Below are positions 5,698 through 30,253 of a stretch of DNA of 64,000 nt, piece by piece. Position numbers and translations under genes: made by a program. Source of the DNA: an uncultured Bacteroidota bacterium. GTDB lineage: Bacteria; Bacteroidota; Bacteroidia; Chitinophagales; Chitinophagaceae. Every line of letters begins with the position of its first letter. The first letter of the stretch is position 1. Where the stretch lies: positions 400,858 through 464,857 of the forward strand of contig CAVZXS010000011.1 in assembly GCA_963779325.1 (NCBI GenBank). The letters run 5' to 3'. Under the pieces are notes generated by a model. That model had not been told where the DNA came from and did not search any database. It worked only from the letters and a program-made list of their open reading frames with translations.

Positions 5698-6763
5698 TTA
5701 CTGTTGTGTTACCATTTTTTCCGAGTTCTCGGCAAACTGCAGCGCATCTATAAATTCCTGTATGTTTCCGTTCAAAACATCGTCAAGGTTATAAACGGTA
5801 AGCCCGATACGGTGATCGGTAACCCTACCCTGCGGAAAATTATAGGTTCTGATTTTTGCACTTCGGTCGCCTGTACTTACCAAGCTCTTACGCTGACGCG
5901 AAATCTCATCCTCCTGCTTGCGTACCTGCTCTTCGTATAACTTGGTACGCAGCATATTCATAGCTTTCTCGCGGTTGCCAAGCTGGCTTCGCTCCGTTTG
6001 GCAAACTACCACCACACCGGTAGGTATATGGGTTAAAAAAACTTTCGTTTCCACCTTGTTTACATTCTGCCCGCCGGCACCACCGCTCCTGGCCGTTTCC
6101 ATTTTTACATCACTCTCTTTCAATTCAAAATCTACTTCTTCAGCCTCAGGCATTACCGCTACGGTAGCGGCACTTGTGTGCACACGGCCGCTGGCTTCTG
6201 TATCAGGCACCCGTTGTACACGGTGTACACCGCTCTCAAATTTCAAGCGTACCATATACATCATCGCCGGTTACTTCCAATTGTACTTCTTTGTACCCGC
6301 CAACAGTGCCTTCACTTTCGCTGAGTATGGCTGTTTTCCATCCTCTTCTTTCGCAATATTTCAGGTACATTCTCAATAAATTGCCGGCAAATAAACTGGC
6401 TTCATCGCCACCTGTACCTGCACGTATTTCAAGTATAGCATTCTTTTCATCCTGCGGGTCTTTTGGTATCAGCATCTGGCGGATGACAGATTCCATTTTT
6501 TCTTTTTTTAATTCCAGTTCCGGCGCCTCAGCTTTAGCCAAATCTCTCATTTCCTCATCATCGCCGTTCAGCGCTTCTTTATAAAAATCTATATCCTCCA
6601 GAATTTTTCTGTACTCGTTATAAGCAGTCACAATTTTTTCCAGGCTGCGGTACTCTTTGCTGGTAGCTGTAAATTTTTTATTATCGTTTACAATCTCCGG
6701 GTTGGTAAGGGCAACACCCAAATTATCAAATCTTGCTTTTATTGCTTCTAACTTATCTAACAT
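5698..6763 (-). pseudogene. prfA: peptide chain release factor 1 (RF1), reading frame interrupted by a 1-nt indel near 6236-6264
   Basis: N-terminal ORF 6236..6763 (..[25 protein letters not shown]) and C-terminal ORF 5698..6264 ([42 protein letters not shown]) together recreate full RF1 (GGQ motif, [15 protein letters not shown] are RF1-type); junction CTTGAAATTTGAGAGC restores LKFESG if one base is removed. Confidence 0.85.
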
Positions 6764-10134: not shown

Positions 10135-10150
10135 TGCGGAGACTAAGGGA
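10135..10150. repeat. att core (left copy; partial duplicate of tRNA-Ser 3' end)
   Basis: identical to 20510-20525. Confidence 0.7.
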
Positions 10151-10267
10151 CTAAAACCTATGTTATTTTTAGCTAATTACCTTTAGCAAAATGCAGTCGA
10201 AAAATGACTTTAAACAGGGATACTAACAATATGAGTAAATAAGACTAAACGTAATTAGTATAAAAAT

Positions 10268-10289
10268 TGCTCCCCTTTTTGCTCCCCTT
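10268..10289 (+). repeat. 22-bp putative integrase arm-type site (left), TGCTCCCCTTTTTGCTCCCCTT (itself a tandem TGCTCCCCTT x2)
   Basis: identical 22-mer at 20436-20457 in the same orientation, each 50-120 bp inside the element ends. Confidence 0.6.
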
Positions 10290-10331
10290 TTTTTAAATGC
10301 CTTATCTTTACCCCAAGTTAAAAGCATAAAT

Positions 10332-11648
10332 ATGGGTACAATTCGTTTTGAACTCCGCAACGAAAAGACTGATAAAACAGGCAAAGCACCTGTACGAATG
10401 ATTTACCAAGTTAGCGGGCAACGTAAATACTATAATACAGGAAAAAAAGTACCTCCCCAAAGTTGGCACCCGGATAAACAGCAAGCTATTTACCTCGATA
10501 AAAAGACTGCAAAGAAATTACACCCGACAATTCCTTACGATTTACTTTTCACTCACAGCGAAACAGAAACGCTTAATAACGAACTTTCAGACCTGCAAAA
10601 ACAAGTGAAGGAAATTGAACATCGGTTTGAAATGGATAAAATTCCTTACTCCGCTGAAATGGTGATTGATAAACTAAATGACAATAAAAAACCAACTACT
10701 AAGAAAGAAGCTCCAAACAAAATATTATTTGATTTCATTGATAAGTACATTGAAGATCATAAAATGACAAGGGAGGCGGGGAGTTTAACGGTTTACAAAT
10801 CGTTGAAAAATCATTTACAGGATTACCAGCAGGCCACAAAAAAGAAAATAGCTTTTGATAAAATAGATTATTCTTTTTTTCAATCTTTCCAAAACTTCCT
10901 GATTGAAAAAAAGGGCTTAAACAATACCACCGTAGCTAAGCAACTAAGCACCGTTAAAACATTTCTTAACTATGCTAAAACACAGGGTATTGCCGTTACC
11001 GATAAGTATAAAGACTTTAAAATAAAGCGGGAAACATTGGAAGTAATTGCCTTAACCAATGAAGAATTTGAAGCCTTGTATTATCTCGACCTCTCGGCAA
11101 ACAAAAGACTTGCACAGGTACGGGACGTTTTTTGTTTTGCCTGTTCTACCGGGTTAAGGTATTCAGACCTCAATCAACTGAAACGGGAACACATAAAGCA
11201 TGATGAAATAAGGATAACGGTAAAGAAAACAAAAGAGCCTCTAAGCGTTCCCCTAACTCCGTATTCAAAAACCATATTAGCAAGATACGAAGCCATGCAC
11301 CGGCCCTTGCCTGTAATTAGCAACCAACGGTTAAATGATTATGTAAAAGAATTATGCAGCATGGCGGGTATTTCCGATCAGGTGGAAATAGTACGTTTCA
11401 GAGGTACGAAACGGGAAGCCATTACCTATAAAAAATATGAACTGATAGGAGTACATACCGGCCGTAAAACATTTGCCACACTATCGCTGGAAAGAGGAAT
11501 GAGTGCGGAGGAAGTAATGACAATCACGGGCCACAGGGATTACCAAAGTTTTAAACGGTATGTGAAGGTAACAGAGCAACGTAAAAAAATCGTAATGCTG
11601 AAAGCCTGGGGCGGCGAACTAAGTTCAATAAAGTTAAAAGCAATATAA
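10332..11648 (+). CDS. tyrosine site-specific recombinase/integrase with N-terminal arm-type DNA-binding domain (Bacteroidetes integrase family)
   Basis: 438 aa; N-terminus MGTIRFELRNEKTDKTGKAPVRMIYQVSGQRKYYNTGKKV typical of Bacteroides-type integrase arm-binding domain; C-terminal catalytic HTGRKTFAT...GHRDYQSFKRYVKV (R-H-R-Y). Confidence 0.9.
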   Translation: MGTIRFELRNEKTDKTGKAPVRMIYQVSGQRKYYNTGKKVPPQSWHPDKQQAIYLDKKTAKKLHPTIPYDLLFTHSETETLNNELSDLQKQVKEIEHRFEMDKIPYSAEMVIDKLNDNKKPTTKKEAPNKILFDFIDKYIEDHKMTREAGSLTVYKSLKNHLQDYQQATKKKIAFDKIDYSFFQSFQNFLIEKKGLNNTTVAKQLSTVKTFLNYAKTQGIAVTDKYKDFKIKRETLEVIALTNEEFEALYYLDLSANKRLAQVRDVFCFACSTGLRYSDLNQLKREHIKHDEIRITVKKTKEPLSVPLTPYSKTILARYEAMHRPLPVISNQRLNDYVKELCSMAGISDQVEIVRFRGTKREAITYKKYELIGVHTGRKTFATLSLERGMSAEEVMTITGHRDYQSFKRYVKVTEQRKKIVMLKAWGGELSSIKLKAI

Positions 11649-11656
11649 TTATCAGT

Positions 11657-12217
11657 ATGCAGATCATTAAAAGTATTCAAAACAGGATTTATGAAATAAG
11701 AGGCGAAAGGGTAATGCTTGACAGGGATTTGGCCGCACTTTATGAAACCGAAACAAAATCTTTGAATCTTGCTGTAAAACGTAATGCAAAGCGTTTCCCT
11801 CCCGATTTTATGTTTCAGCTTACCAAAACTGAATTTGAGGCTTTGAGGTTGCAAATTGAAACCTTAGAAAAATCAGACAATCCTTTGAGGTTGCAAAATG
11901 AAACCTCAAAAGGCAGGGGTGGCACAAGGTATTTACCCTATGCCTTTACCGAACAGGGCGTTGCCATGTTAAGCGGTGTATTAAACAGCGACAACGCCAT
12001 AAACATGAATATTGCTATTATGCGAGCTTTTGTAGAAGTAAGGAAGGTACTGATAAAACAAAATGATTTGAAAGAACAGTTGAAAGAGATAAAAGAAAGA
12101 TTGGGGGAACATGATGTACAACTGAATCAAATTTACGATGCAATGGAAAACCTGTTGGACGAAAAAGCAGCGGAGAGAAAGTGGGATGAAAGAGAAAGAA
12201 TAGGGTTTAAGAAATAG
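11657..12217 (+). CDS. ORF6N-domain protein (KilA-N-related DNA-binding/antirepressor-like)
   Basis: 186 aa; IRGERVMLDRDLAALYETETKSLNLAVKRNAKRFPPDFMFQL matches ORF6N domain; coiled-coil C-terminus. Confidence 0.7.
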   Translation: MQIIKSIQNRIYEIRGERVMLDRDLAALYETETKSLNLAVKRNAKRFPPDFMFQLTKTEFEALRLQIETLEKSDNPLRLQNETSKGRGGTRYLPYAFTEQGVAMLSGVLNSDNAINMNIAIMRAFVEVRKVLIKQNDLKEQLKEIKERLGEHDVQLNQIYDAMENLLDEKAAERKWDERERIGFKK

Positions 12218-12249
12218 ATTAAAATTTTAATATAAAGTGTAAAAGACTA

Positions 12250-14934
12250 ATGGAAAATAATCTTAAAAAAGAAACAATTGATTCATTCAATTTAGATATT
12301 TTTTTTCAGTTACATGGTACGTCGAAATACGCAAAGAGTGATAGCGACTTTCAGGTAATATTTGAAAGAGAAATGAAGGAGTTAAACGACGTAGGGTTAG
12401 CGATTACCAATAGAAGTAAAATTTTTCAAATCAAAGAAATAATTGCTGATGTAGAGAAATATATTAAGCGATATAATGAAGTTCGAACTTATAAAGCTGT
12501 TAGAAACAGGGGCTTACTTGAAGCTGCTCATGAGTTTATCAGTTGGTTGAAAATAAAAAAGGAAAGTCTAAGAGAACAGGGTAAGGAGGCAAATCACAGC
12601 AACAAAAAAAAGTCCTCGCTAAAAGAAAAATTATCTGAATCATTGACACAAAATAAATCTTCTGATATGATGGTTGATTGCGAGAAATGTAACAAGTTGT
12701 TTATAACGGAAATAAAGGATTTATGTAGCAATTGCAGCATACACAGACAAGTAAGTGATGTTAGGGAAAATATGATATTAAAGTTTGAAACACTCAGCAG
12801 TACAAATAATAAGAGTGCATTAATTGATTACCTTAAAGAGAAAATAGATAAAGGGAATAAAATTATAATAGATACTATAGACGGGGACTCACTACACGCA
12901 GACGATAATTACAGAAAAAATAGAGTTGCAATAATACTTAGCTGGAAAGATTGCGTGAAATATTATAGCGAACAATTGGATTTGCTGAATGATGCAGCCA
13001 CAAAAAATAATAATGAAGACCCTATTTTCTCAGGCTTAGAGCCTCCCCGATATTATTATGCAATTGATAACGGAAATTTTCGAATTACCAACAACGCTAC
13101 CCCGGAACAAATAAATAGTCTTGTTAAGAAAATTCAAGCTACAAACACAATGAAGTTTTGTAATGAACTAAAAAGTAAAACTGCTGATGAAATACCGGCA
13201 TACTTAGATTTTCATTTACGATGTTTTAAACGTAATGGGGGCAACCCTTCTGAGTGGCTTATCTATACAAAAAAGCAAATGCCCGGCGGTTTTTCGCATC
13301 AACAACAGGATGCTTTTTTGTTGTGGTTTGAAAACAACCGGTTAAATAACGAAACTAAAACCGGAAATGATATGCCCGAAGATAATCTAAACCATAATTC
13401 ACGGCAATACAAAGAAGCATTTGAAAAATATAATACTGCCTGCAATGAGCTAAGAAAAAAGTACAGGGTAGAATATATTATTACAAAGGAAGATTTGGAA
13501 GATATCCCCAACGCAAAAGAAGGTGATAAAACAACTACAAATCCACCTATCCCAAATAATACTAAAGAAGCATTTGAATTATTTAAAAACTACTATGGCG
13601 CTATACAACTTGAAGTGAATAAATTACACTTTTGCCAAAAATACCTCGCATGGAATGAACCTGCTATCAAAGCAGAAATAAAAATTATTGAAGACTGGAT
13701 AAACAAGGCGGAACAAATAAAGTATTCAGATTGTGCTATTAACCCGCAAGGCAATATTGAAAACTCTCATAGTCAGGAACATGAATATTTAAGATTAAAG
13801 AATGGGTTTTATGAAAGCTATTTAATGACGTGGGAGCAACACCAATATACATCAACTGCTTCAACTGTTTGCGGTAGGTATTTTTTATTTTATGAGTATC
13901 TTAAAGAATTAGTAAAAGGTGAAATTTGTAAGGTTCCCTCAATAATAGAAGCTATAAGGAATAATCCCAAAATCTGTGATGAAATACTATGGTCATATTA
14001 TAATATGGTAGATCAACCTAAAGAAAGACCTAAAAATTATGTAGGGCCACTTTGGAGGCACAATGCACCTTATCAGGTAAATATTTATGGAGCTTACCCA
14101 CTAATGAGCCAGTGGGAGATTTTGGAAATGCACATGGCTAATGTCGATGATAAAAGCGGGTATTACAAAGAATACAAAAAGGAGAAAGTTTTTGAATCGT
14201 TAAAGGATTATGCCAAAGGTTTTCGATTTGGCTTTGATAATTTTTTTGTTGATATAGCAAAAGAGAAATTAACTTCTGAATTGACCCGGGAAGAAAAAGT
14301 TTTTGCGATTATTGATTATTTGACAAATCCCTTTAACAGATCTGGCTTTTCCATATCACGCGGAGTAGGTGATGTTTTTTCAGGTTGGTATGATGACGGG
14401 GTAAACGGAGGGAAATACTATTGTGCGTGGTATTTTATAATGAGTAACCACCGACTTTTTGAGCCTCATTTTAAAGAAAAAAATAAACTCCCAGAAAAAG
14501 ATGAGAGCGGAGATTTTATAGAAGCTAATTTCGAAGAAGCAGCCGATGCAACTCGTGATTTGATTACTAAACATCTTCATTGCCTTTCAGGTAAATGGAG
14601 AGGTGTGCAAATAATGACTAATGATGAGTACGAAAGACTTATTAAATACGCTCTATACACCTTTAAAAATACAAAACTACCTTTGAAAATAGAGGCAATA
14701 AAAAAAGGCCAAAGCAAAACTCCAGAGTTATTTTACAGGCAAACAATATATCTGTTTTGGAAGATTGAACTAAAGGGAAATAAAGAGCATAGGCAGGATT
14801 TGTGGATTGATTTTTATAAAAAGATTTTCGCTCCATTTTGTAAGAATATTAAGAGTGAATGGAGTAAAAATTTTTCTAAATCTTACAAAAGCTATCCGGC
14901 GGATAAAAATAATATAGATTACACTAAAGCATAA
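12250..14934 (+). CDS. large hypothetical protein (894 aa), cargo of the integrative element; no recognisable catalytic motif
   Basis: intact 2.7-kb ORF, Lys/Glu/Asn-rich, one CxxC..CxxC cluster (CEKCNKLFITEIKDLCSNCS), several aromatic-rich blocks (GWYDDGVNGGKYYCAWYF). Confidence 0.6.
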   Translation: MENNLKKETIDSFNLDIFFQLHGTSKYAKSDSDFQVIFEREMKELNDVGLAITNRSKIFQIKEIIADVEKYIKRYNEVRTYKAVRNRGLLEAAHEFISWLKIKKESLREQGKEANHSNKKKSSLKEKLSESLTQNKSSDMMVDCEKCNKLFITEIKDLCSNCSIHRQVSDVRENMILKFETLSSTNNKSALIDYLKEKIDKGNKIIIDTIDGDSLHADDNYRKNRVAIILSWKDCVKYYSEQLDLLNDAATKNNNEDPIFSGLEPPRYYYAIDNGNFRITNNATPEQINSLVKKIQATNTMKFCNELKSKTADEIPAYLDFHLRCFKRNGGNPSEWLIYTKKQMPGGFSHQQQDAFLLWFENNRLNNETKTGNDMPEDNLNHNSRQYKEAFEKYNTACNELRKKYRVEYIITKEDLEDIPNAKEGDKTTTNPPIPNNTKEAFELFKNYYGAIQLEVNKLHFCQKYLAWNEPAIKAEIKIIEDWINKAEQIKYSDCAINPQGNIENSHSQEHEYLRLKNGFYESYLMTWEQHQYTSTASTVCGRYFLFYEYLKELVKGEICKVPSIIEAIRNNPKICDEILWSYYNMVDQPKERPKNYVGPLWRHNAPYQVNIYGAYPLMSQWEILEMHMANVDDKSGYYKEYKKEKVFESLKDYAKGFRFGFDNFFVDIAKEKLTSELTREEKVFAIIDYLTNPFNRSGFSISRGVGDVFSGWYDDGVNGGKYYCAWYFIMSNHRLFEPHFKEKNKLPEKDESGDFIEANFEEAADATRDLITKHLHCLSGKWRGVQIMTNDEYERLIKYALYTFKNTKLPLKIEAIKKGQSKTPELFYRQTIYLFWKIELKGNKEHRQDLWIDFYKKIFAPFCKNIKSEWSKNFSKSYKSYPADKNNIDYTKA

Positions 14935-15025
14935 AAACCAATCTCAATAAGGGTTTCGCTAACCCTACATTCCCGCTCTTTTTCCCGCTCATCCCTACTT
15001 CTAAGTTGCGTTCAAATTAATAAAA

Positions 15026-15316
15026 ATGACGCAACAAATCACAACCACACTTTCAGAGGGCGAATTAACTGCGCTAATTGAAAATGCTGTAAACAAAGTC
15101 GTACAGCAAATACCCGACAATCAAAAAATCAAAAGCACTCCTATCTCAAGACGGGAATTAATGAATCGGTTAAACATAAGTGAGCCGACAGTGATACGTC
15201 TCGAAAAAAAAGGTAAAATTCCATGTATGCACATCGGCTCGGCCGTAAGGTATGATTGGGAAGCAGTTATTGAAGCATTGGAAAGTAAAAAGAAAAGTGG
15301 AGGGTCTCAAAAATGA
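15026..15316 (+). CDS. excisionase-like helix-turn-helix DNA-binding protein
   Basis: 96 aa; ISRRELMNRLNISEPTVIRLEKKGKIPCMHIGSAVRYDWEAV resembles the Xis/MerR-like HTH_17 domain common in Bacteroidetes mobile elements. Confidence 0.6.
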   Translation: MTQQITTTLSEGELTALIENAVNKVVQQIPDNQKIKSTPISRRELMNRLNISEPTVIRLEKKGKIPCMHIGSAVRYDWEAVIEALESKKKSGGSQK

Positions 15317-15606
15317 AACACTCCACTAAAAAATCTTTGACTCAGCAAAGCAAAGATAAAAAATATAAAACAGAATTGAGGATAGTTTTTGATGCTTTTT
15401 TTAAGCAGCCAATGACTATGAAAGAACTGTCAGTAAAGTATAACGTTGATAGAGCCTCCATTTGTTGGTATTGCAGGGAGTTTCGGCTAAACAATCAAAT
15501 TGCAATAGTAAAAAAAGTGTATTGCAGCATTACAAAACATCTTGCCAACCGATACACTACCAACCCTGCATTGTTTCCTGTTTCATCACAATTAAAAATG
15601 TTTTGA
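15313..15606 (+). CDS. hypothetical small protein (translationally coupled to upstream gene, ATGA overlap)
   Basis: 97 aa; possible HTH (MTMKELSVKYNVDRASICWY). Confidence 0.4.
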   Translation: MKHSTKKSLTQQSKDKKYKTELRIVFDAFFKQPMTMKELSVKYNVDRASICWYCREFRLNNQIAIVKKVYCSITKHLANRYTTNPALFPVSSQLKMF

Positions 15607-15609
15607 TGT

Positions 15610-16779
15610 ATGGAACAAATAAAACCTCAATTCGATTTTGATAAATTCGGAATCGGCAGTATCCCGCCGTCCGAAACGCTGGAGCATGTCAACGGGTTTA
15701 TCAATAACACTATTAGCGATGCTGCGAATCAAAATAATTTGAATCCGCTCAAAGAATTTGAAAGACTGCGCATAACGGATACTACACCGATAAAGCCGCC
15801 TGTACCTGTTATTACTATCAATGGCGAAACTATAAGCACGGAAGGAAACCTGACTACCATAAGCGGTGCCAGTAAAAGCGGCAAAAGTGCGTTTAGCAGC
15901 ATACTCATTGCGGGGGCAATAAGCAATGACGGTGTTATTGACGGATTAGACAGTGTAGAAGTTCAACCCAATACAAACTGTAAAGCCGTATTACATTTTG
16001 ATACCGAACAGGCCCGGCATAAACATCAATACAATGTCAAGTCTATTCTTAAAAGGGCGGGTATGGAAAAATGCCATGAATACTTTCTGTCTTACAATAT
16101 TCGGGAATTGGATATAAGCGATTACGCAACTATCACCAATGACATTTGCCACGCAGCCGAAGAACAGTTTGGCGGTATCCACTTGGTTGTAATTGACGGT
16201 ATTGCTGATTACATAAGCGATGTAAACGACCCTATACAATCCAACGCTATTGTAAAGTTTTTTGAAGAGTTGGCAATTAAGCACCAAACGCCGATAATTA
16301 TTATTGTACATACCAACCCCGGCAGTGATAAAGAGAGAGGTCATTTGGGCAGTCAGTGCCAGCGCAAAAGCGAAAGTGTAATAATGGTAAAGACAGAGGG
16401 AGACATTTCATTTATTGAGCCTAAGTTTTTGCGGATGGCCGGCAAGGGCAGCATACCGCTCATTCAATTTATGTACGATAAAAATAAAGGTTACCATGTC
16501 GGGTGCGGAATAAGAACAGATGACAATGCAAAGAAAGATGCAGAACGTATTGCAGCAATTGAAAAAATATGCGGTAAAGTTTTTGGCGGACAAAAAGCAC
16601 ATGCTTACAGCGATGCGATTGCCGCCATAATGCGGGAGACGGATAAAAAAGAAAGAACAGCAAAGGATATGTTTACCGAAATGAAAGCGCATGAAATGAT
16701 AATACAGGGAGGTGATAAAAATTGGCGACTAAGCACCGGGCAAAGCGAAGAAACAGAGGAAGACAACTTGGTGCAGTAG
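15610..16779 (+). CDS. RecA-superfamily ATPase, RepA/DnaB-like (AAA_25-type) replication protein
   Basis: 389 aa; Walker A SGASKSGKS, Walker B IHLVVIDGIADY, RecA-fold core; typical of plasmid/phage replicative ATPases. Confidence 0.6.
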   Translation: MEQIKPQFDFDKFGIGSIPPSETLEHVNGFINNTISDAANQNNLNPLKEFERLRITDTTPIKPPVPVITINGETISTEGNLTTISGASKSGKSAFSSILIAGAISNDGVIDGLDSVEVQPNTNCKAVLHFDTEQARHKHQYNVKSILKRAGMEKCHEYFLSYNIRELDISDYATITNDICHAAEEQFGGIHLVVIDGIADYISDVNDPIQSNAIVKFFEELAIKHQTPIIIIVHTNPGSDKERGHLGSQCQRKSESVIMVKTEGDISFIEPKFLRMAGKGSIPLIQFMYDKNKGYHVGCGIRTDDNAKKDAERIAAIEKICGKVFGGQKAHAYSDAIAAIMRETDKKERTAKDMFTEMKAHEMIIQGGDKNWRLSTGQSEETEEDNLVQ

Positions 16780-16865
16780 TGTTGCACCGGTTCAATTGCA
16801 CTGCCCTGCACCGGTGCAGTGGTGCAATAGGGTATAGGGAATTGCACCGACTGCACCGCCCGTAA
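16780..16865. repeat. iteron-like cluster of TGCACCG repeats with embedded perfect palindrome CTGCACCGGTGCAG (candidate origin/operator)
   Basis: TTGCACCGG, TTGCACTGC, CTGCACCGGTGCAG, GTGCAAT, TTGCACCGA, CTGCACCGCC within 86 bp immediately downstream of the RepA-like gene. Confidence 0.5.
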
Positions 16866-16877
16866 TACCCTTTTACA

Positions 16878-17096
16878 ATGAAACAGCATTACATAACAGA
16901 CATTTCAAAAAAAATGGAAGAACAAAAACAAGCCCAAAAGCAGTTTAATGAAATAGTGAGCGAAGTTTTGAACAGTGACACGAACCCTGTTTATAAAAGT
17001 GTGGTTGGTGTAGTTTTTTCGCTTATTGAGGACAGGCGTTTGATTAGCCTTGACACACTACTAAAAGAAAACTATCCGGAATATTATTATGAATAA
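16878..17096 (+). CDS. hypothetical small protein
   Basis: 72-aa ORF between iteron cluster and hicB; no motif. Confidence 0.3.
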   Translation: MKQHYITDISKKMEEQKQAQKQFNEIVSEVLNSDTNPVYKSVVGVVFSLIEDRRLISLDTLLKENYPEYYYE

Positions 17097-17109
17097 GCAC
17101 AGCTGCATA

Positions 17110-17487
17110 TTACAGAATAAACCGGATAGCTGCCAACTCTTTACCTACTTGCTGCACACCCTTCAAAATACGCAGCGTTTGGACAGGCGAAGGTTTTTTA
17201 TTACCGTTGATGTATTGCGCCAAAAGACTTTGGTTAATGCCTATACGTTCAGAAAGAGCTTTAGCATTAATTACTTTGTAAAACGCAAAGAACTGCGGCA
17301 AGTCCAAACTTATTTTCAAATCACTTTCATCAACGACTTTTCCTTGCTTCTCAAAGTGAAGATTAAGGGCTTCCAGCATGTTGGCTTTAAGTTCTTCCAA
17401 AGAATCGCCAACAGTATAAACAGGATATTTTTCAGCATAGGCCGAATAACCTGTTTTAGTTCTTTCAACAATCATTTCAATTTTCAT
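17110..17487 (-). CDS. hicB: type II antitoxin HicB (RNase-H-like N-domain plus C-terminal HTH)
   Basis: 125 aa; MKIEMIVERTKTGYSAYAEKYPVYTVGDSLEELKANMLEALNLHFE matches HicB/UPF0150 fold, C-terminal ALSERIGINQSLLAQYINGNKKPS HTH. Confidence 0.8.
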   Translation of the reverse strand: MKIEMIVERTKTGYSAYAEKYPVYTVGDSLEELKANMLEALNLHFEKQGKVVDESDLKISLDLPQFFAFYKVINAKALSERIGINQSLLAQYINGNKKPSPVQTLRILKGVQQVGKELAAIRFIL

Positions 17488-17499
17488 AACTCACTATTT

Positions 17500-17685
17500 T
17501 TATTTTATACCTGCATCTTTTTTTATTTTCTTTTCCAATCCTTTACCCACTTCATGGCTGCCATGATACGGGCAAACAATTTGGCCCTTTTTAACAGGGT
17601 GTTGCATAATCATGTGGCTGCCCGTTTGCCTTACAACAAACCAACCGTCTTTTTTAAGCAGTCTTACCAGTTCGCCGGATTTCAT
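17500..17685 (-). CDS. hicA: type II toxin HicA (mRNA interferase)
   Basis: 61 aa; MKSGELVRLLKKDGWFVVRQTGSHMIMQHPVKKGQIVCPYHGSHEVGKGLEKKIKKDAGI is a near-textbook HicA (YcfA-like) sequence; directly upstream of hicB. Confidence 0.85.
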   Translation of the reverse strand: MKSGELVRLLKKDGWFVVRQTGSHMIMQHPVKKGQIVCPYHGSHEVGKGLEKKIKKDAGIK

Positions 17686-17713
17686 TTTTCAAAGGTAATA
17701 AATTTATTACTTT

Positions 17714-19084
17714 ATGCAAACACATAATCTAAAGCCATTGCCCAAACTTGAATTAGATAAAAAACGATTTCGGGTGAAAAGTTGCCCCTGTGGCAGAAGC
17801 AATAAGGACGGCAAATTTGTTCCCTATACAGGTTATGAAAATAAAGGCTATTGCCATTCATGCGGTGAAACATTTTTACCCGAACTAATAAAGAGTGAGC
17901 AATGGAATACCTCCCCTCCAAAAGCATACAGCAATCGGAGAACTATTGCGCCGAACCAAAAACAGGTTTCCTTTATTCCGGTCGAGGTATTTAAAGACAG
18001 CTTGAAAAATCATGAGACAAACCATTTTGTAAAATACTTAATTGAACTTTTTGGGATTGAGGTTACAAATGAATTGATAAGTAAATATTTTATCGGTACA
18101 TCAAATCATTGGCCCGGGGCAACCGTCTTTTGGCAAATTGATATTATCGGTAAAATAAGAACAGGCAAGATAATGCTGTACAATACTGATACGGGTAAAA
18201 GAGTAAAAGAGCCTTTCAATCATATTCAATGGGTACATAAATTGATTGACTACCCTGAGTTTGAATTAAAGCAATGTTTTTTTGGCAGTCACTTGTTACA
18301 TAATAAAACTAAACCCGTCGCAATAGTTGAAAGTGAAAAGACCGCAATCATAGCAAGTGTTTATTTGCCGCAGTTTATTTGGTTGTCCGTTGGCGGTGTT
18401 GACGGCTTGAACACCGAAAAATGCAGTGTACTAAAAGGGCGAAATGTTACACTCTTCCCGGACCTTAACCGCTTTGAAAATTGGAGTACTAAGGCAAAGG
18501 AGTTGTTAGTAAATGTTAGTGTTTCAGATTTGTTGGAACGCAAAGCAACCGAAGCAGAAAGAAAACAGGGGCTTGACCTTGCCGACTATTTGATAAAGTT
18601 CGATTACAAAGATTTTGCACTTGCCGAAACCCTCACGCAACATAATTTCAAAAATTTTCAAAAACTTTCAACATTAGAGCCGGCACCAACAGAAACCTTC
18701 CTAAAACCTCTAAATGAACTGTTAACTTATGTTAACATTGAAGGGTCTTTACCTCTACATCCGGCAATTGAAAAAACTACCGTAAAACGACGTGAAAACG
18801 CCGATAAAACCTCGGTAAAACCACCGCACAATCCAATTATAAAAGAATCACCAAAGCCCGAAAATTGGGAACAGGATATTACTGAGCTCGAAAATTATTT
18901 TGAAAGCATTGCAATCCCGCCCGGTCCCTTAATGCTGAACCAATGCGGTATAATAATAAATATTCCCTTATTCATTGAAAGCCATATTGCCACCTTGAAA
19001 GCAAATAACGGTAAGCTGACATTTGCACCGTTTTTAAGCAGGTTACAAACTTTAAAAACGATACTTCAAAATGAAAAACACTAA
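17714..19084 (+). CDS. putative DNA primase (N-terminal Zn-binding motif plus Toprim-like domain)
   Basis: 456 aa; CPCGRSNKDGKFVPYTGYENKGYCHSCGETF zinc ribbon; VESEKTAIIASVYLP ... FPDLNRFENW resembles Toprim E / DxD motifs. Confidence 0.55.
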   Translation: MQTHNLKPLPKLELDKKRFRVKSCPCGRSNKDGKFVPYTGYENKGYCHSCGETFLPELIKSEQWNTSPPKAYSNRRTIAPNQKQVSFIPVEVFKDSLKNHETNHFVKYLIELFGIEVTNELISKYFIGTSNHWPGATVFWQIDIIGKIRTGKIMLYNTDTGKRVKEPFNHIQWVHKLIDYPEFELKQCFFGSHLLHNKTKPVAIVESEKTAIIASVYLPQFIWLSVGGVDGLNTEKCSVLKGRNVTLFPDLNRFENWSTKAKELLVNVSVSDLLERKATEAERKQGLDLADYLIKFDYKDFALAETLTQHNFKNFQKLSTLEPAPTETFLKPLNELLTYVNIEGSLPLHPAIEKTTVKRRENADKTSVKPPHNPIIKESPKPENWEQDITELENYFESIAIPPGPLMLNQCGIIINIPLFIESHIATLKANNGKLTFAPFLSRLQTLKTILQNEKH

Positions 19085-19520
19085 AGCCATGCAAAAAAAG
19101 TTGAAAAAAGTTGATGAAAGTAAAAGGCTGAAATTAGTTGCGAAACTGCAAACTACATTTAACGGTAAACTTGAAGCCTTAAATATTGCTTATAAAAACA
19201 AAGACGGGTCTGCGGTTGATAAAGCAAACATAGAGTTATTTGAATTTATGGATAAGAATATACCCGAAGACAACCCCTCTCATATTCAAATGAAAAACCA
19301 TACGTGGCAGCGCAATCATTTGAAGATATTGGCAAGCATTTCAACCTCGACACAGGAAAAAAATCGTATGCCAACCAACACGGAAATATCCAATGATGCC
19401 GGGCTAAGTGAGGAAACGGTTTATAAACACCTGCGGGAATTTAAAGACCATGATCTTTACAAACATGAGGCTGATAAATACCGACTAATGATACATAGGG
19501 TACTTACAACAGTTTTTTAA
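19071..19520 (+). CDS. hypothetical protein
   Basis: 149 aa, Lys-rich; next ORF 19522..19734 starts 2 nt later in another frame (could be one gene with a frameshift). Confidence 0.35.
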   Translation: MKNTKAMQKKLKKVDESKRLKLVAKLQTTFNGKLEALNIAYKNKDGSAVDKANIELFEFMDKNIPEDNPSHIQMKNHTWQRNHLKILASISTSTQEKNRMPTNTEISNDAGLSEETVYKHLREFKDHDLYKHEADKYRLMIHRVLTTVF

Positions 19521-19521
19521 T

Positions 19522-19734
19522 TTGGGTGTACAAGGTGATATACGGGCTTGTAAAGTTTATTTGGATTACTTCATCGCTAACTCACCGGCAGCACCTGTGG
19601 AGCAAACTAATTACATACAAATAAACAATCTCAAAATAACACCTGATGAACTGGAAAAACTACCGCCTGCAACCCTGCAAAAAATAGAAACTTTAATTAA
19701 GATGCCGGTTAAAAAAACTTTGGACAGAAAGTAA
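19522..19734 (+). CDS. hypothetical small protein (or C-terminal continuation of 19071..19520)
   Basis: 70-aa ORF with non-ATG start. Confidence 0.25.
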   Translation: MGVQGDIRACKVYLDYFIANSPAAPVEQTNYIQINNLKITPDELEKLPPATLQKIETLIKMPVKKTLDRK

Positions 19735-19822
19735 GATAAATAATCCTTTTCCCGATTTCCTTTTCAATTACTATTTTTGATTAATATCCGAATAAAGTAT
19801 TAATCTATCAAAATTTTATAAA

Positions 19823-20341
19823 ATGAAAATTAAATTCATACTGTTTTCCCTACTTGCCCTGACACTTACCGGTTGTGCGCCAAAAGCATATCCTTTAAAA
19901 GGAACTTACACAAATGGTAACTATGAACAGCTTTCTGATAAAACAAAAGATCAGGTTTGGGATAACATTATTGATTTCTTTGCTAAGAATGGAATTGGTA
20001 TTAAAATAATTGATCGCAGCAGCGGATTAATTATTTCAGGGGAAACGACTTTAACGTGGAGTTATGAAAATAGTAAAGGTGAACTTTTAAATAAAGATGC
20101 GTGGGTGGCTATTTATAAAATCTATGATCCCGGTTCTCGTATTGTTTACAAACCTTATTTAGTTACCGGAGAGTGGAATATTAGAATAAAAGAGCAAAGT
20201 GGAAAAACTCTAATAAACATTAATTTGGTAAATCCAAGTTATACGCTAAGTCAGACTTCAGCAAGCAAATCAATATTTCAAAAAGGGTATTTGCAATCTA
20301 CGGGTAACTTTGAGAAATGGGTTTACGGCAATATAAAATAA
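19823..20341 (+). CDS. hypothetical lipoprotein
   Basis: 172 aa; signal peptide with lipobox LTLTGC. Confidence 0.5.
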   Translation: MKIKFILFSLLALTLTGCAPKAYPLKGTYTNGNYEQLSDKTKDQVWDNIIDFFAKNGIGIKIIDRSSGLIISGETTLTWSYENSKGELLNKDAWVAIYKIYDPGSRIVYKPYLVTGEWNIRIKEQSGKTLININLVNPSYTLSQTSASKSIFQKGYLQSTGNFEKWVYGNIK

Positions 20342-20435
20342 AAAGGGCAGGATAGAAATCCCGCCCGATAAGTTAAAAGCCATTGATATGGCCAGACAAA
20401 AATAAGATAAAAACGGCCTCAAAACAGAGGTAAAC

Positions 20436-20457
20436 TGCTCCCCTTTTTGCTCCCCTT
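20436..20457 (+). repeat. 22-bp putative integrase arm-type site (right copy)
   Basis: identical to 10268-10289. Confidence 0.6.
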
Positions 20458-20511
20458 CCATAAAATTAAAATGCAAATAATTGTAAATTAATTATTTGCG
20501 AAAATAAGTTG

Positions 20512-20598
20512 CGGAGACTAAGGGATTCGAACCCTTGATACAGTTTCCCGTATACACACTTTCCAGGCGTGCTCCTTCAACCACTCGGACAAGTCTCC
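20512..20598 (-). tRNA. tRNA-Ser (anticodon GGA), class II with long variable arm
   Basis: reverse complement reads GGAGACTTGTCCGAGTGGTTGAAGGAGCACGCCTGGAAAGTGTG...GGGTTCGAATCCCTTAGTCTCCG; anticodon loop CT-GGA-AA; its 3' end is the att core of the adjacent integrative element. Confidence 0.85.
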
Positions 20599-29210: not shown

Positions 29211-29281
29211 TGGCTTATAGTTCAACGGAAGAATGCTGTGCTACGAACGCAGTGATATAAGTTCGAGTCTTATTAAGCCAA
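29211..29281 (+). tRNA. tRNA-Arg (ACG), AT-rich divergent
   Basis: clean cloverleaf: acceptor TGGCTTA/TAAGCCA, D arm GTTC-AACGGAA-GAAT, anticodon arm CTGTG-CTACGAA-CGCAG, T arm ATAAG-TTCGAGT-CTTAT. Confidence 0.6.
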
Positions 29282-29326
29282 CAAAAGTTGATGACCTGTA
29301 GCTTAAGTTTTTCAGTCATCACAAAA

Positions 29327-29401
29327 TGGTTCGTAGCTCAATTGGATTAGAGCTTCCGGTTTTTACCCGGAAGGTTGTGAGTTCGAATCTCACCGGGCCA
29401 A
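29327..29401 (+). tRNA. tRNA-Lys (TTT), divergent (two G-U pairs in acceptor)
   Basis: acceptor TGGTTCG/CGGGCCA, D arm GCTC-AATTGGATTA-GAGC, anticodon arm TCCGG-TTTTTAC-CCGGA, T arm GTGAG-TTCGAAT-CTCAC. Confidence 0.55.
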
Positions 29402-29405
29402 CAAA

Positions 29406-29483
29406 GGGAATATAGTTCAACGGCAGAATCCCGCACATGCGGGATTAAGCCATCAGATGAATGTTCGAATCATTCTGTTCCCG
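29406..29483 (+). tRNA. tRNA-like pseudogene (acceptor, D and T arms intact; anticodon arm replaced by a 6-bp/4-nt-loop hairpin)
   Basis: GGGAATA...TGTTCCC acceptor, GTTC-AACGGCA-GAAT D arm, GAATG-TTCGAAT-CATTC T arm, but central TCCCGC-ACAT-GCGGGA cannot form a 7-nt anticodon loop. Confidence 0.35.
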
Positions 29484-29487
29484 CAAT

Positions 29488-29574
29488 TGTGAGTTCGACA
29501 AAGATGGAGAGTTGTAGCAGACTGTAAATCTGTTGTTCAAAATACTGAGATGGTTCGAATCCATCCGCTCACAC
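29488..29574 (+). tRNA. tRNA-Tyr (GTA), class II, slightly non-canonical spacing
   Basis: anticodon arm GCAGA-CTGTAAA-TCTGT matches the bacterial tRNA-Tyr anticodon arm; long variable region; T arm GATGG-TTCGAAT-CCATC; acceptor TGTGAGT/GCTCACA. Confidence 0.45.
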
Positions 29575-29577
29575 AAT

Positions 29578-29661
29578 GGAGAGAGTCCGGTTGGTCGAGG
29601 AAGCTGTCTTGAAAACAGACCGGGTGTAATAGCCCCAAGAGTTCGAATCTCTTTCTCTCCG
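29578..29661 (+). tRNA. tRNA-Ser (TGA), class II
   Basis: acceptor GGAGAGA/TCTCTCC, anticodon loop CTTGAAA, T arm AAGAG-TTCGAAT-CTCTT (same T arm as E. coli tRNA-Ser UGA), long variable arm. Confidence 0.6.
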
Positions 29662-29816
29662 CCGGTGAAAACATCCCCTCCACGGAGGGGCGAGTTGAGG
29701 AAAACATATTGCTATAGGAGACCGGGGTGGGTTGCTGAATAGCCATATGCAGCACAAGTGTGCGACGCAAGGGACGATGACCGGAGTTACTACAGCCGGT
29801 AACAAAAAAATAGTTT

Positions 29817-29901
29817 GGAGAGTTGACAGAGTGGTAATGTAATGGCCTGCTAAGCCATACATCGTTTATTCGGTGCAAAGGTTCGAATCCTTTACTCTCC
29901 G
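29817..29901 (+). tRNA. tRNA-Ser (GCT), class II
   Basis: acceptor GGAGAGT/ACTCTCC, anticodon arm ATGGC-CTGCTAA-GCCAT, T arm AAAGG-TTCGAAT-CCTTT, long variable arm. Confidence 0.65.
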
Positions 29902-29962
29902 CTTTAATCAACAAAGCTTTAGCGAAGTTGATAAATTGTTTGACAATGGGTGAATTCGATAG

Positions 29963-29982
29963 CCTGCCTGCCGGCAGGCAGG
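29963..29982. repeat. perfect 20-bp palindrome CCTGCCTGCCGGCAGGCAGG
   Basis: near-identical 21-bp copy at 30269-30289. Confidence 0.7.
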
Positions 29983-30015
29983 TGAGGAAATAGTAATCAA
30001 TCAATACTCATTTCA

Positions 30016-30087
30016 AACAACCGGACGAATAGCTCCAATGGCAGAGCAGCGGTTTGAAGCACCGTGGTTATAAGTTCGAGTCTTATT
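30016..30087 (+). tRNA. tRNA-Phe (GAA)
   Basis: canonical 72-nt cloverleaf: acceptor GGACGAA/TTCGTCC, D arm GCTC-CAATGGCA-GAGC, anticodon arm GCGGT-TTGAAGC-ACCGT, T arm ATAAG-TTCGAGT-CTTAT (identical T arm to the tRNA-Arg at 29211). Confidence 0.65.
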
Positions 30088-30253
30088 TCGTCCGCGTAGA
30101 AAAGTACAATAAGAAAAAAGATGAATAAAGAACAAATGTCGAATGGAGCGTCGCCAATGTCGCTATATCAGGGAACAGAAGTTGGAAAACAAAATACTCC
30201 TTCGCTAAAGCTACGGAGTACAAGAAAAATTTAAATACCCTGCGGGGAAAACA

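Follow-up and report, generated by a model that had tools for sequence, protein, structure and literature searches.

A conserved array of TGCACC half-sites beside an AAA_25 ATPase gene is the probable replication origin of a tRNA-Ser-integrated element in Bacteroidota

A 64,000-nucleotide stretch of contig CAVZXS010000011.1 from an uncultured Chitinophagaceae bacterium (Bacteroidota), called the window throughout, carries a 10.4-kb element at positions 10135-20525 that is integrated in the 3' end of a tRNA-Ser(GGA) gene and bounded by a 16-bp direct repeat. Inside this element, a gene for a protein of the Pfam family AAA_25 is followed by a 98-bp gap that is occupied by a dense array of short repeats, GGTGCAGtagtgtTGCACCGGTTCAatTGCACTgcccTGCACCGGTGCAgtGGTGCAAtagggtatagggaatTGCACCgacTGCACC (16770-16858). 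Judging from the array and its counterparts in related loci, we consider it probable that these repeats are a binding array for the cognate AAA_25 protein and most likely the vegetative replication origin of the element. The gene and the parts of the array are as follows.

15610-16779, plus strand: AAA_25 protein, 389 aa, putative initiator-helicase
16522-16731, plus strand: coding region of the predicted C-terminal winged-helix domain, residues 305-374, with recognition helix 348-360
16654-16656, plus strand: codon AGA for Arg349, candidate specificity residue that would read the G of the GCA core
16770-16858, unstranded: whole half-site array, about 9-10 copies of YTGCACC / GGTGCAR; proposed replication origin; layout as in related loci L064, L056, L033 and L008
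16770-16775, minus strand: half-site GGTGCA over the final codons of the AAA_25 gene, directly ahead of its TAG stop codon
16782-16795, unstranded: degenerate head-to-head dimer site, TTGCACC abutting GGTTCAA, with one mismatch in the right half
16796-16803, plus strand: degenerate single half-site TTGCACTG
16806-16819, unstranded: perfect 14-bp palindrome CTGCACCGGTGCAG (CTGCACC abutting GGTGCAG), head-to-head dimer site
16821-16827, minus strand: half-site GGTGCAA, left arm of the core inverted pair
16829-16840, unstranded: core spacer AGGGTATAGGGA with the conserved CCTATA core; proposed melting or assembly centre
16842-16858, plus strand: direct half-sites TTGCACCG and CTGCACCG, starts 9 bp apart, right arm of the core

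Exact copies of TGCACC start on the plus strand at 16783, 16807, 16843 and 16852, and exact copies of its reverse complement GGTGCA start at 16770, 16813 and 16821, a total of seven. Two or three half-sites carry one mismatch, among them GGTTCA at 16789 and TGCACT at 16797, and the reverse complement of the core spacer reads CCCTATACC. An original prediction made for 16780-16865 had counted at least six TGCACC-type repeats in 86 bp, including a perfect 14-bp palindrome. Six exact hexamers do lie in that interval and the palindrome is present, but the array begins 10 bp earlier, at 16770, within the terminal codons of the upstream gene. The first repeat runs into the gene end in seven related loci as well (L008, L009, L018, L035, L041, L056 and L113). 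The gap had also been called the GC-richest noncoding stretch of the element, which holds when it is compared with other intergenic segments of at least 28 bp: 16780-16877 has 54% G+C, against 12-40% for those segments and an average of 36% for the element, and only a 13-bp gap at 17097-17109 has the same 54%. Of all 86-bp windows in the element, the one that starts at 16776 has the highest G+C content (58%).

The repeats are clustered far beyond expectation. TGCACCG occurs 15 times in the window, compared with 4.85 ± 2.1 times in shuffled sequences, and five of the 15 copies lie within the array. The hexamer TGCACC/GGTGCA occurs 33 times in the 64 kb, with seven copies in one 100-bp window and at most one in every other; the Poisson probability of seven copies in a given 100-bp window is ~3.5×10−14. 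The array therefore has what is generically found at an iteron origin, namely at least three copies of a short word, in noncoding DNA and beyond chance. A chance or low-complexity repeat, or a host repeat interspersed through the genome, has only the shortness of the word in its favor. We give that explanation virtually no weight, because it is refuted by the clustering statistics together with the equivalent arrays at the orthologous position in most of 107 related loci.

These loci come from a search that yielded 552 homologues of the AAA_25 protein, of which the named ones are almost all from Bacteroidota. We fetched 52 genome, 80 metagenome and 6 viral-contig loci, and kept 107 non-redundant loci in which the gene end is present together with at least 120 bp downstream. 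Most of the 107 contain a dense repeat array within 100-170 bp 3' of the stop codon. In ~42 of 47 loci examined for this, the 225 bp that follow the AAA_25 stop contain 5-12 copies of the most frequent 6-mer, where 0.05-0.4 copies are expected from the rest of the locus. The repeated words are GGTGCA(A), GGTATA(A), GGTTTA(A), GGTACA(A), GGTCAA(T), GGTTCA(T) and GGTGTAA, as well as TATGCAAA, GGGGTAT, GGGGCAA, GGTGACA, GGTATCA and TTGCGGT, and most of them fit the form GGT-NN-A(A). The motif of the window recurs in homologous elements, and its failure to do so would have counted against the original prediction: 30 of the 107 loci have a TGCA-type word, identically placed and arranged, and most of the others have an equivalent array, built from a different word, at the orthologous position. 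The location of the array next to the gene of its presumed initiator, with the first repeat in the last AAA_25 codons in the window, is likewise kept in most loci.

The layout is conserved along with the position. With '<' denoting GGTxxx and '>' its complement, the window array reads [<, over the stop codon] [><] [>] [><] [<] N14 [>] N3 [>], and the same layout with near-identical spacing is found in L064, L056, L033, L008 and L073, including the '> N3 >' pair that lies at 16842-16858 in the window. Loci that use other words retain the head-to-head dimer site, in which xxACC abuts GGTxx (for example TATACCGGTATA, TTAAACCGGTTTAA and TGTACCGGTACA), and the inverted pair around a spacer. The spacer is most often 14-15 nt long, with a consensus of about CCTATA(TA)GG. 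Of the 107 loci, 96 have an exact inverted repeat of at least 6 bp around a TATA-containing spacer, against 14 of 107 in-gene control segments, although the first count is inflated for GGTATA-type words because the word itself holds TATA.

The protein encoded upstream had been described as RepA-like, and both its Pfam AAA_25 match (1.5e-8) and its fold bear this out. An AlphaFold2 (AF2) model with a pLDDT of 87 has a disordered N-terminus, a RecA-fold core, and a C-terminal domain of three helices and a beta-hairpin (residues 305-374). The best solved relatives of the core in a fold search are DnaB, RadA, RAD51, KaiC and the RSF1010 RepA helicase, the last with an E value of 1.2e-9 for 1nlf_A. 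When modelled alone, the C-terminal domain reaches a pLDDT of 85.5 and is predicted to be a winged helix; its fold matches are generic winged-helix proteins of the IclR, MarR and DtxR types (E 0.03-0.1), and the search returned no initiator-specific relative that would place it in a particular family. In the family alignment the N-terminal ~45 residues are hypervariable in length and sequence, and residues 1-33 of the window protein are predicted to be disordered (pLDDT <50). The C-terminal tail beyond W372-R373 varies across the family too, in part because the first half-site overlaps the last codons.

If the winged helix reads the array, then changes in the repeated word should be accompanied by changes in the protein. 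We aligned the C-terminal domains from the 107 loci and sorted them by word. Residue 349 of the window protein lies at the first turn of helix 348-360, just before a conserved T-A-K motif. All loci with a TGCA-type word (GGTGCA, GTGCAA or TATGCAAA) have Arg here, and all loci with GGTATA, GGTACA, GGTTTA, GGTCAA or GGTTCA have A, S, T, P, I, N, V or G. The resulting two-by-two table contains 30 loci with Arg and a TGCA-type word, 4 with Arg and another word, none with a different residue and a TGCA-type word, and 73 with neither (Fisher p = 1.5e-22). One of the four exceptions has the word GGTGACA, in which the position in question is still a G. Among all alignment columns, residue 349 has the highest mutual information with the word (1.09 excess bits, z = 14), followed by A338 (0.64) and D353 (0.51), and the elevated columns cluster in residues 338-363. 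On a rough neighbor-joining tree of the ATPase core, either character has to change ~17-18 times.

The switch can be seen between close relatives. The closest ATPase core to that of the window, from locus L053, is 82% identical and yet is paired with the word GGTTTA, with VNA at residues 348-350 in place of the ERT of the window protein. The window word GGTGCA is found with only one of the 14 closest cores. Since the nearest cores use other words, specificity appears to change by few substitutions and faster than the enzyme core diverges. Such covariation is what would be expected of iterons and their cognate initiator, and it strongly, if indirectly, supports the AAA_25 protein as the probable binding partner of the array. 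It could in part reflect co-inheritance, because the C-terminal coding region adjoins the array; the sharp single-column peak and the switch by point substitution argue against pure linkage.

The remaining genes and features of the element are as follows.

10135-10150, plus strand: attL, 16-bp repeat TGCGGAGACTAAGGGA
10332-11648, plus strand: tyrosine integrase with Arm-DNA-bind_5, Phage_int_SAM_5 and Phage_integrase domains
11657-12217, plus strand: ORF6N protein, PADLOC candidate defence family PDC-S05 (E 1e-56)
12250-14934, plus strand: 894-aa orphan with no match in Pfam, NCBIfam, PHROGs or PADLOC
15026-15316, plus strand: HTH_17 excisionase-like protein
15313-15606, plus strand: 97-aa protein
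16878-17096, plus strand: orphan 72-aa open reading frame (ORF), A-rich, starting directly 3' of the array; no family match
17110-17487, minus strand: HicB-like helix-turn-helix (HTH) antitoxin, 125 aa
17500-17685, minus strand: HicA toxin, 61 aa (Pfam 1.2e-20)
17714-19084, plus strand: DUF6371 + DUF6965 protein, putative primase; orthologues also have Zn_ribbon_16
19071-20341, plus strand: three small ORFs
20510-20525, plus strand: attR, 16-bp repeat TGCGGAGACTAAGGGA, in the 3' end of tRNA-Ser(GGA) (20511-20598, minus strand)

A 22-bp repeat, TGCTCCCCTTTTTGCTCCCCTT, lies just within both ends of the element (10268-10289 and 20436-20457) and may represent integrase arm-type sites. The ORF6N protein and the 894-aa orphan may be defence cargo of the island, and the flanking genes, such as those for TatD and GltX, are chromosomal. 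Elsewhere in the window there is a cluster of six or seven tRNA genes at 29211-30095, with one irregular ARAGORN call at 29406-29484 ('tRNA-???', two-base anticodon).

Where examined, the next conserved gene 3' of the array encodes a primase, and at least three non-orthologous kinds are found at this place: proteins with Zn_ribbon_16 and DUF6371 (the window, L008 and ~35 loci), a protein with BT4734-like_N and PriCT_2 domains (L001), and a DnaG-type protein with a CHC2 zinc finger and Toprim_2 (L133, a Bacteroides element related to the NBUs, or 'non-replicating Bacteroides units'). The product of 17714-19084 is a putative primase, assigned by its Zn-ribbon, a weak PHROG match and its synteny with bona fide primase domains elsewhere; the DUF6371 protein gave no sequence match in PDB and did not resemble the DnaG-type primase of L133 in BLASTP. 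An integrase gene lies 2-3 kb upstream in most loci. In L008, from Telluribacter, the order is integrase, one gene of unknown function, HTH_17, AAA_25, array and primase, which looks like a minimal element.

The position of the array directly upstream of the next gene in most loci also suits a different role, in which it is only a transcriptional operator or promoter through which the AAA_25 winged helix or another regulator controls the downstream primase operon, with no part in replication. Palindromic dimer sites such as CTGCACCGGTGCAG are typical of operators, and the TATA-containing core lies 40-75 bp ahead of the downstream start codon. Plasmid iteron initiators, moreover, commonly autoregulate. 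However, 9-12 half-sites in a conserved higher-order layout far exceed the needs of an operator, and the presumed reader is a RecA-fold ATPase resembling DnaB and RepA. A sigma-70 promoter and terminator scan gave no plus-strand signal in the gap, although the tool does not include Bacteroidetes promoters, and no Bacteroidetes TAnnTTTG -7 box was seen by eye in 16780-16877. In the window, the 72-aa ORF and the HicAB cassette (17110-17685), which is convergent and an insertion between the array and the primase gene, separate the two, so that the array cannot be the proximal promoter of that gene. An exclusively regulatory role is thus unlikely, but operator and origin functions are not mutually exclusive.

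Three ORFs near the array were considered as genes. The 72-aa ORF at 16878-17096 gave no tblastn match among ~140 related loci and may not be a gene at all, but part of the flank of the origin. A coding explanation of the array region was rejected, as neither this ORF nor a minus-strand ORF at 16605-16889 has family matches, and a 212-aa plus-strand ORF at 17089-17727 is an antisense shadow of HicAB.

The inverted repeats might instead constitute a packaging signal (pac- or cos-like), a transcription terminator or a structural hairpin, acting without a specific protein partner in the element. The single-stranded DNA fold of the array region is stable (z = -3.2), a short T-run, CCCTTTT, lies 3' of the array at 16870-16876, and the size of the element is like that of phage satellites. 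Against this, the scan detected no plus-strand terminator, and an Rfam scan of 16500-17200 at a permissive E value gave no match beyond two sub-threshold chance ones. Searches of the element found no capsid, terminase or lysis genes. In IMG/VR, with 2.9 million contigs, only six protein relatives are found and the exact array pattern TGCACCGGTGCANNGGTGCAA is absent, findings by which we also rejected a helper phage that shares the origin. The covariation with residue 349 would furthermore be left unexplained, and this group of explanations is very improbable.

A further alternative is that the array serves excision or mobilization, as a site of helicase loading or as an accessory site, or is an origin of transfer (oriT), and is not used for vegetative replication. 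The module of integrase, HTH_17, AAA_25 and primase genes is common to the element and to NBU-like and Tn4555-like mobilizable elements of Bacteroides, and inverted repeats around a short conserved core, with the stable fold noted above, resemble oriT hairpins. Excision of NBU1 is reported to need the ORFs between int and mob, the primase gene among them, and a review of integrative mobilizable elements notes that a large internal region is required (PMC5704250). However, domain and family scans revealed no relaxase or Mob domain in any ORF of 10135-20525, the array covaries with the ATPase and not with any relaxase, and a helicase and a primase together are a replication toolkit. Moreover, the NBU-like element L133 has its Mob genes on the far side of the primase gene and not at the gap that corresponds to the array. 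We therefore regard a role confined to excision or transfer as improbable.

L133 is a plasmid of Bacteroides finegoldii (NZ_OY725959.1) whose NBU-like element encodes an integrase, two HTH proteins, an AAA_25 ATPase 29% identical to that of the window, the DnaG-type primase, MobC and a relaxase. Its gap between the ATPase and primase genes (6179-6340) contains AGTCCG/CGGACT inverted repeats around GTATATA and a duplicated GGGTGTATATA, and Bacteroides elements of clinical relevance may therefore have the origin-like core as well. The same plasmid carries, at 1420-2700, a Tn4555-type AAA_25 protein (WP_004338330.1) with a C-terminal HTH_23 domain. In this copy the start of the DUF6371 gene lies 4 bp past the AAA_25 stop, and the gene seems to be truncated after ~55 codons; the ATPase gene is followed by no gap and hence by no array. 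A different architecture is found in fusion proteins encoded on plasmids of Prevotella and Phocaeicola (L140 and L141).

The array, its conserved position and layout, the covariation of word and residue, the predicted winged-helix fold and the synteny of helicase, array and primase are compatible with a mechanism that we infer as follows. The integrase and the HTH_17 protein would excise the element, and the C-terminal winged helix of the AAA_25 protein would bind the TGCACC half-sites. Arg349, at the start of the recognition helix, might read the G of the variable GCA core, and the nearly invariant residues K352, W372 and R373 might read the constant ACC/GGT part. Two head-to-head dimer sites, together with two plus two inverted half-sites around the 14-nt CCTATA spacer, could then concentrate subunits, so that the RecA-fold ATPase would assemble, probably as opposed rings, melt the TATA core and load as a helicase. 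The primase encoded by the element (17714-19084) would prime synthesis, and theta replication of the circle would be completed by host polymerase. Because relatives differ in their half-site word, co-resident elements would be expected to have orthogonal origins.

Location is in keeping with such a mechanism, as origins lie directly 3' of the gene for an initiator-helicase with a DNA-binding domain in phage-inducible chromosomal islands (PICIs; PMC6092414) and in pRN1 (PMC4234260). The original proposal of an iteron origin is sustained by recurrence and covariation, with two qualifications: the repeats are mostly inverted half-sites around a short CCTATA spacer, and membership of the element among the PICIs is unsupported.

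Several observations weigh against a replication origin, in addition to the possible co-inheritance considered above. At 54-58% G+C the array is the richest part of the element, and a long AT-rich tract for unwinding, as in classical iteron origins, is absent; in place of an adjacent AT-rich unwinding element there is only the ~14-nt spacer with its TATA core. The A-rich sequence after 16860, of a kind typical for leaders in Bacteroidota, overlaps an ORF. No terminal overlaps indicative of circular forms were found in any contig of the related loci, and similarity to RecA-fold proteins is no proof of helicase activity. NBUs and related Bacteroides elements have, in addition, traditionally been regarded as non-replicative. 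Nonetheless, the array is most likely an origin of the iteron type, with an AAA_25 protein as its winged-helix initiator and a half-site code that extends across the family, a class of mechanism that is itself familiar.

A broader proposal is possible but rather doubtful: that the winged helix and the array form a simple, evolvable code (GGT-NN-A(A), with NN read mainly by residue 349 together with 338 and 353) that might have diversified into at least 12 orthogonal origin specificities in a large and undescribed family of small Bacteroidota elements that integrate and replicate themselves. The AAA_25-primase modules of the NBU-like and Tn4555-like elements, which are clinically important and called 'non-replicating', would then be true replication modules, which is possibly why those genes seemed to be needed for 'excision'. 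The covariation itself is an unusually clean and directly testable specificity rule. If our assignment is correct, the array and the AAA_25 protein would be the first origin and the first initiator to be defined in a family of small Bacteroidota integrative elements that is widespread, with 552 homologues and over 100 loci across soil, sludge, freshwater and gut-related lineages. The word would be switched by a single residue, with the natural pair ERT/GGTGCA and VNA/GGTTTA at 82% core identity as the example. The family would also supply naturally orthogonal, compact replicons for Bacteroidota genetics, where shuttle replicons are scarce, and the 'non-replicating' status of resistance elements of the NBU and Tn4555 type would deserve a second look.

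By gene content, the nearest relatives of the element among described systems are NBU1, NBU2 and Tn4555 (PMC13183296 for the gene content of Tn4555), which share with it an IntN1-type integrase, an HTH_17 protein, an AAA_25 ATPase and a primase. These elements carry a relaxase or Mob protein and an oriT, whereas the element has no MobP relaxase and no oriT, and their AAA_25 proteins are only ~29-30% identical to that of the window. The searchable literature yielded no description of an origin for NBU1, NBU2 or Tn4555, and none of the origin or family of the present element. The element is not a demonstrable member of the PICIs, the IncQ plasmids or the integrative mobilizable elements.

PICIs, including the Staphylococcus aureus pathogenicity islands (SaPIs), resemble the element as small integrative islands with int and xis genes and as replicons with an origin directly 3' of the initiator gene, in which short iterons are grouped in two sets on either side of a presumed site of melting. 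Each PICI origin is specific to its initiator (PMC6092414). The element agrees with these islands in size (~10-15 kb), in the terminal position of int and in the use of a specific att site: it spans 10.4 kb, has a 16-bp att repeat and carries int at 10332-11648. Its ORF6N anti-repressor-like protein is not diagnostic of a PICI. Differences are more numerous. An AAA_25 RecA-fold ATPase that ends in a winged helix would act as initiator, and it does not match the described pri-rep initiator; the order is rep, array, (HicAB) and a separate pri downstream, not pri-rep followed by the origin; and the direct repeats of SaPIs and PICIs flank a long AT-rich tract, whereas the array is GC-rich and consists mostly of inverted half-sites with a ~14-nt CCTATA center. 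Searches of the ORFs of the element against Pfam, NCBIfam, PHROGs and PADLOC revealed no master repressor divergent from xis-pri-rep, no terS, no cpm or ppi and no AlpA-controlled operon, and no capsid-remodelling or interference genes were found. The scarcity of relatives in IMG/VR likewise lends no support to PICI membership, and a further difference is the host phylum, Bacteroidota.

The origins of simian virus 40 (SV40) and the papillomaviruses contain 5-6-bp words as inverted pairs, which are read by a DNA-binding domain tethered to a head-to-head hexameric helicase, T antigen or E1. The geometry of the array can be likened to theirs as a working analogy only, because T antigen and E1 belong to an unrelated helicase superfamily (SF3), have unrelated DNA-binding domains and come from eukaryotic viruses. 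The alpha protein of satellite phage P4 is a helicase with a C-terminal winged-helix domain that reads short repeated origin words, as we propose for the AAA_25 protein. The link between P4 alpha and its origin is mentioned in PMC6092414. However, alpha is a fusion of a primase with an SF3 helicase, the direct and inverted octamers of P4 are split between two distant regions (ori and crr), and the element is without the cos, sid, delta and psu genes. ORF904 of pRN1 likewise combines helicase and winged-helix parts with an essential origin sequence directly 3' of its gene (PMC4234260, PMC2777425). It differs as a prim-pol and SF3 helicase whose origin is a stem-loop and not an iteron array.

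RepA of the IncQ plasmid RSF1010 is the prototype of the AAA_25 fold found in the element, which encodes a putative helicase of the RepA type. RSF1010 uses a separate iteron-binding protein, RepC, with 20-bp direct iterons, and ssi hairpins for its primase. Domain and family scans found no RepC-like gene in the element; its DNA-binding domain is fused to the ATPase, and it has 6-7-bp, mostly inverted half-sites instead of 20-bp direct iterons with ssiA and ssiB. RSF1010 and the element each encode a helicase and a primase of their own, both of them putative in the element, and initiation independent of the host is therefore plausible.

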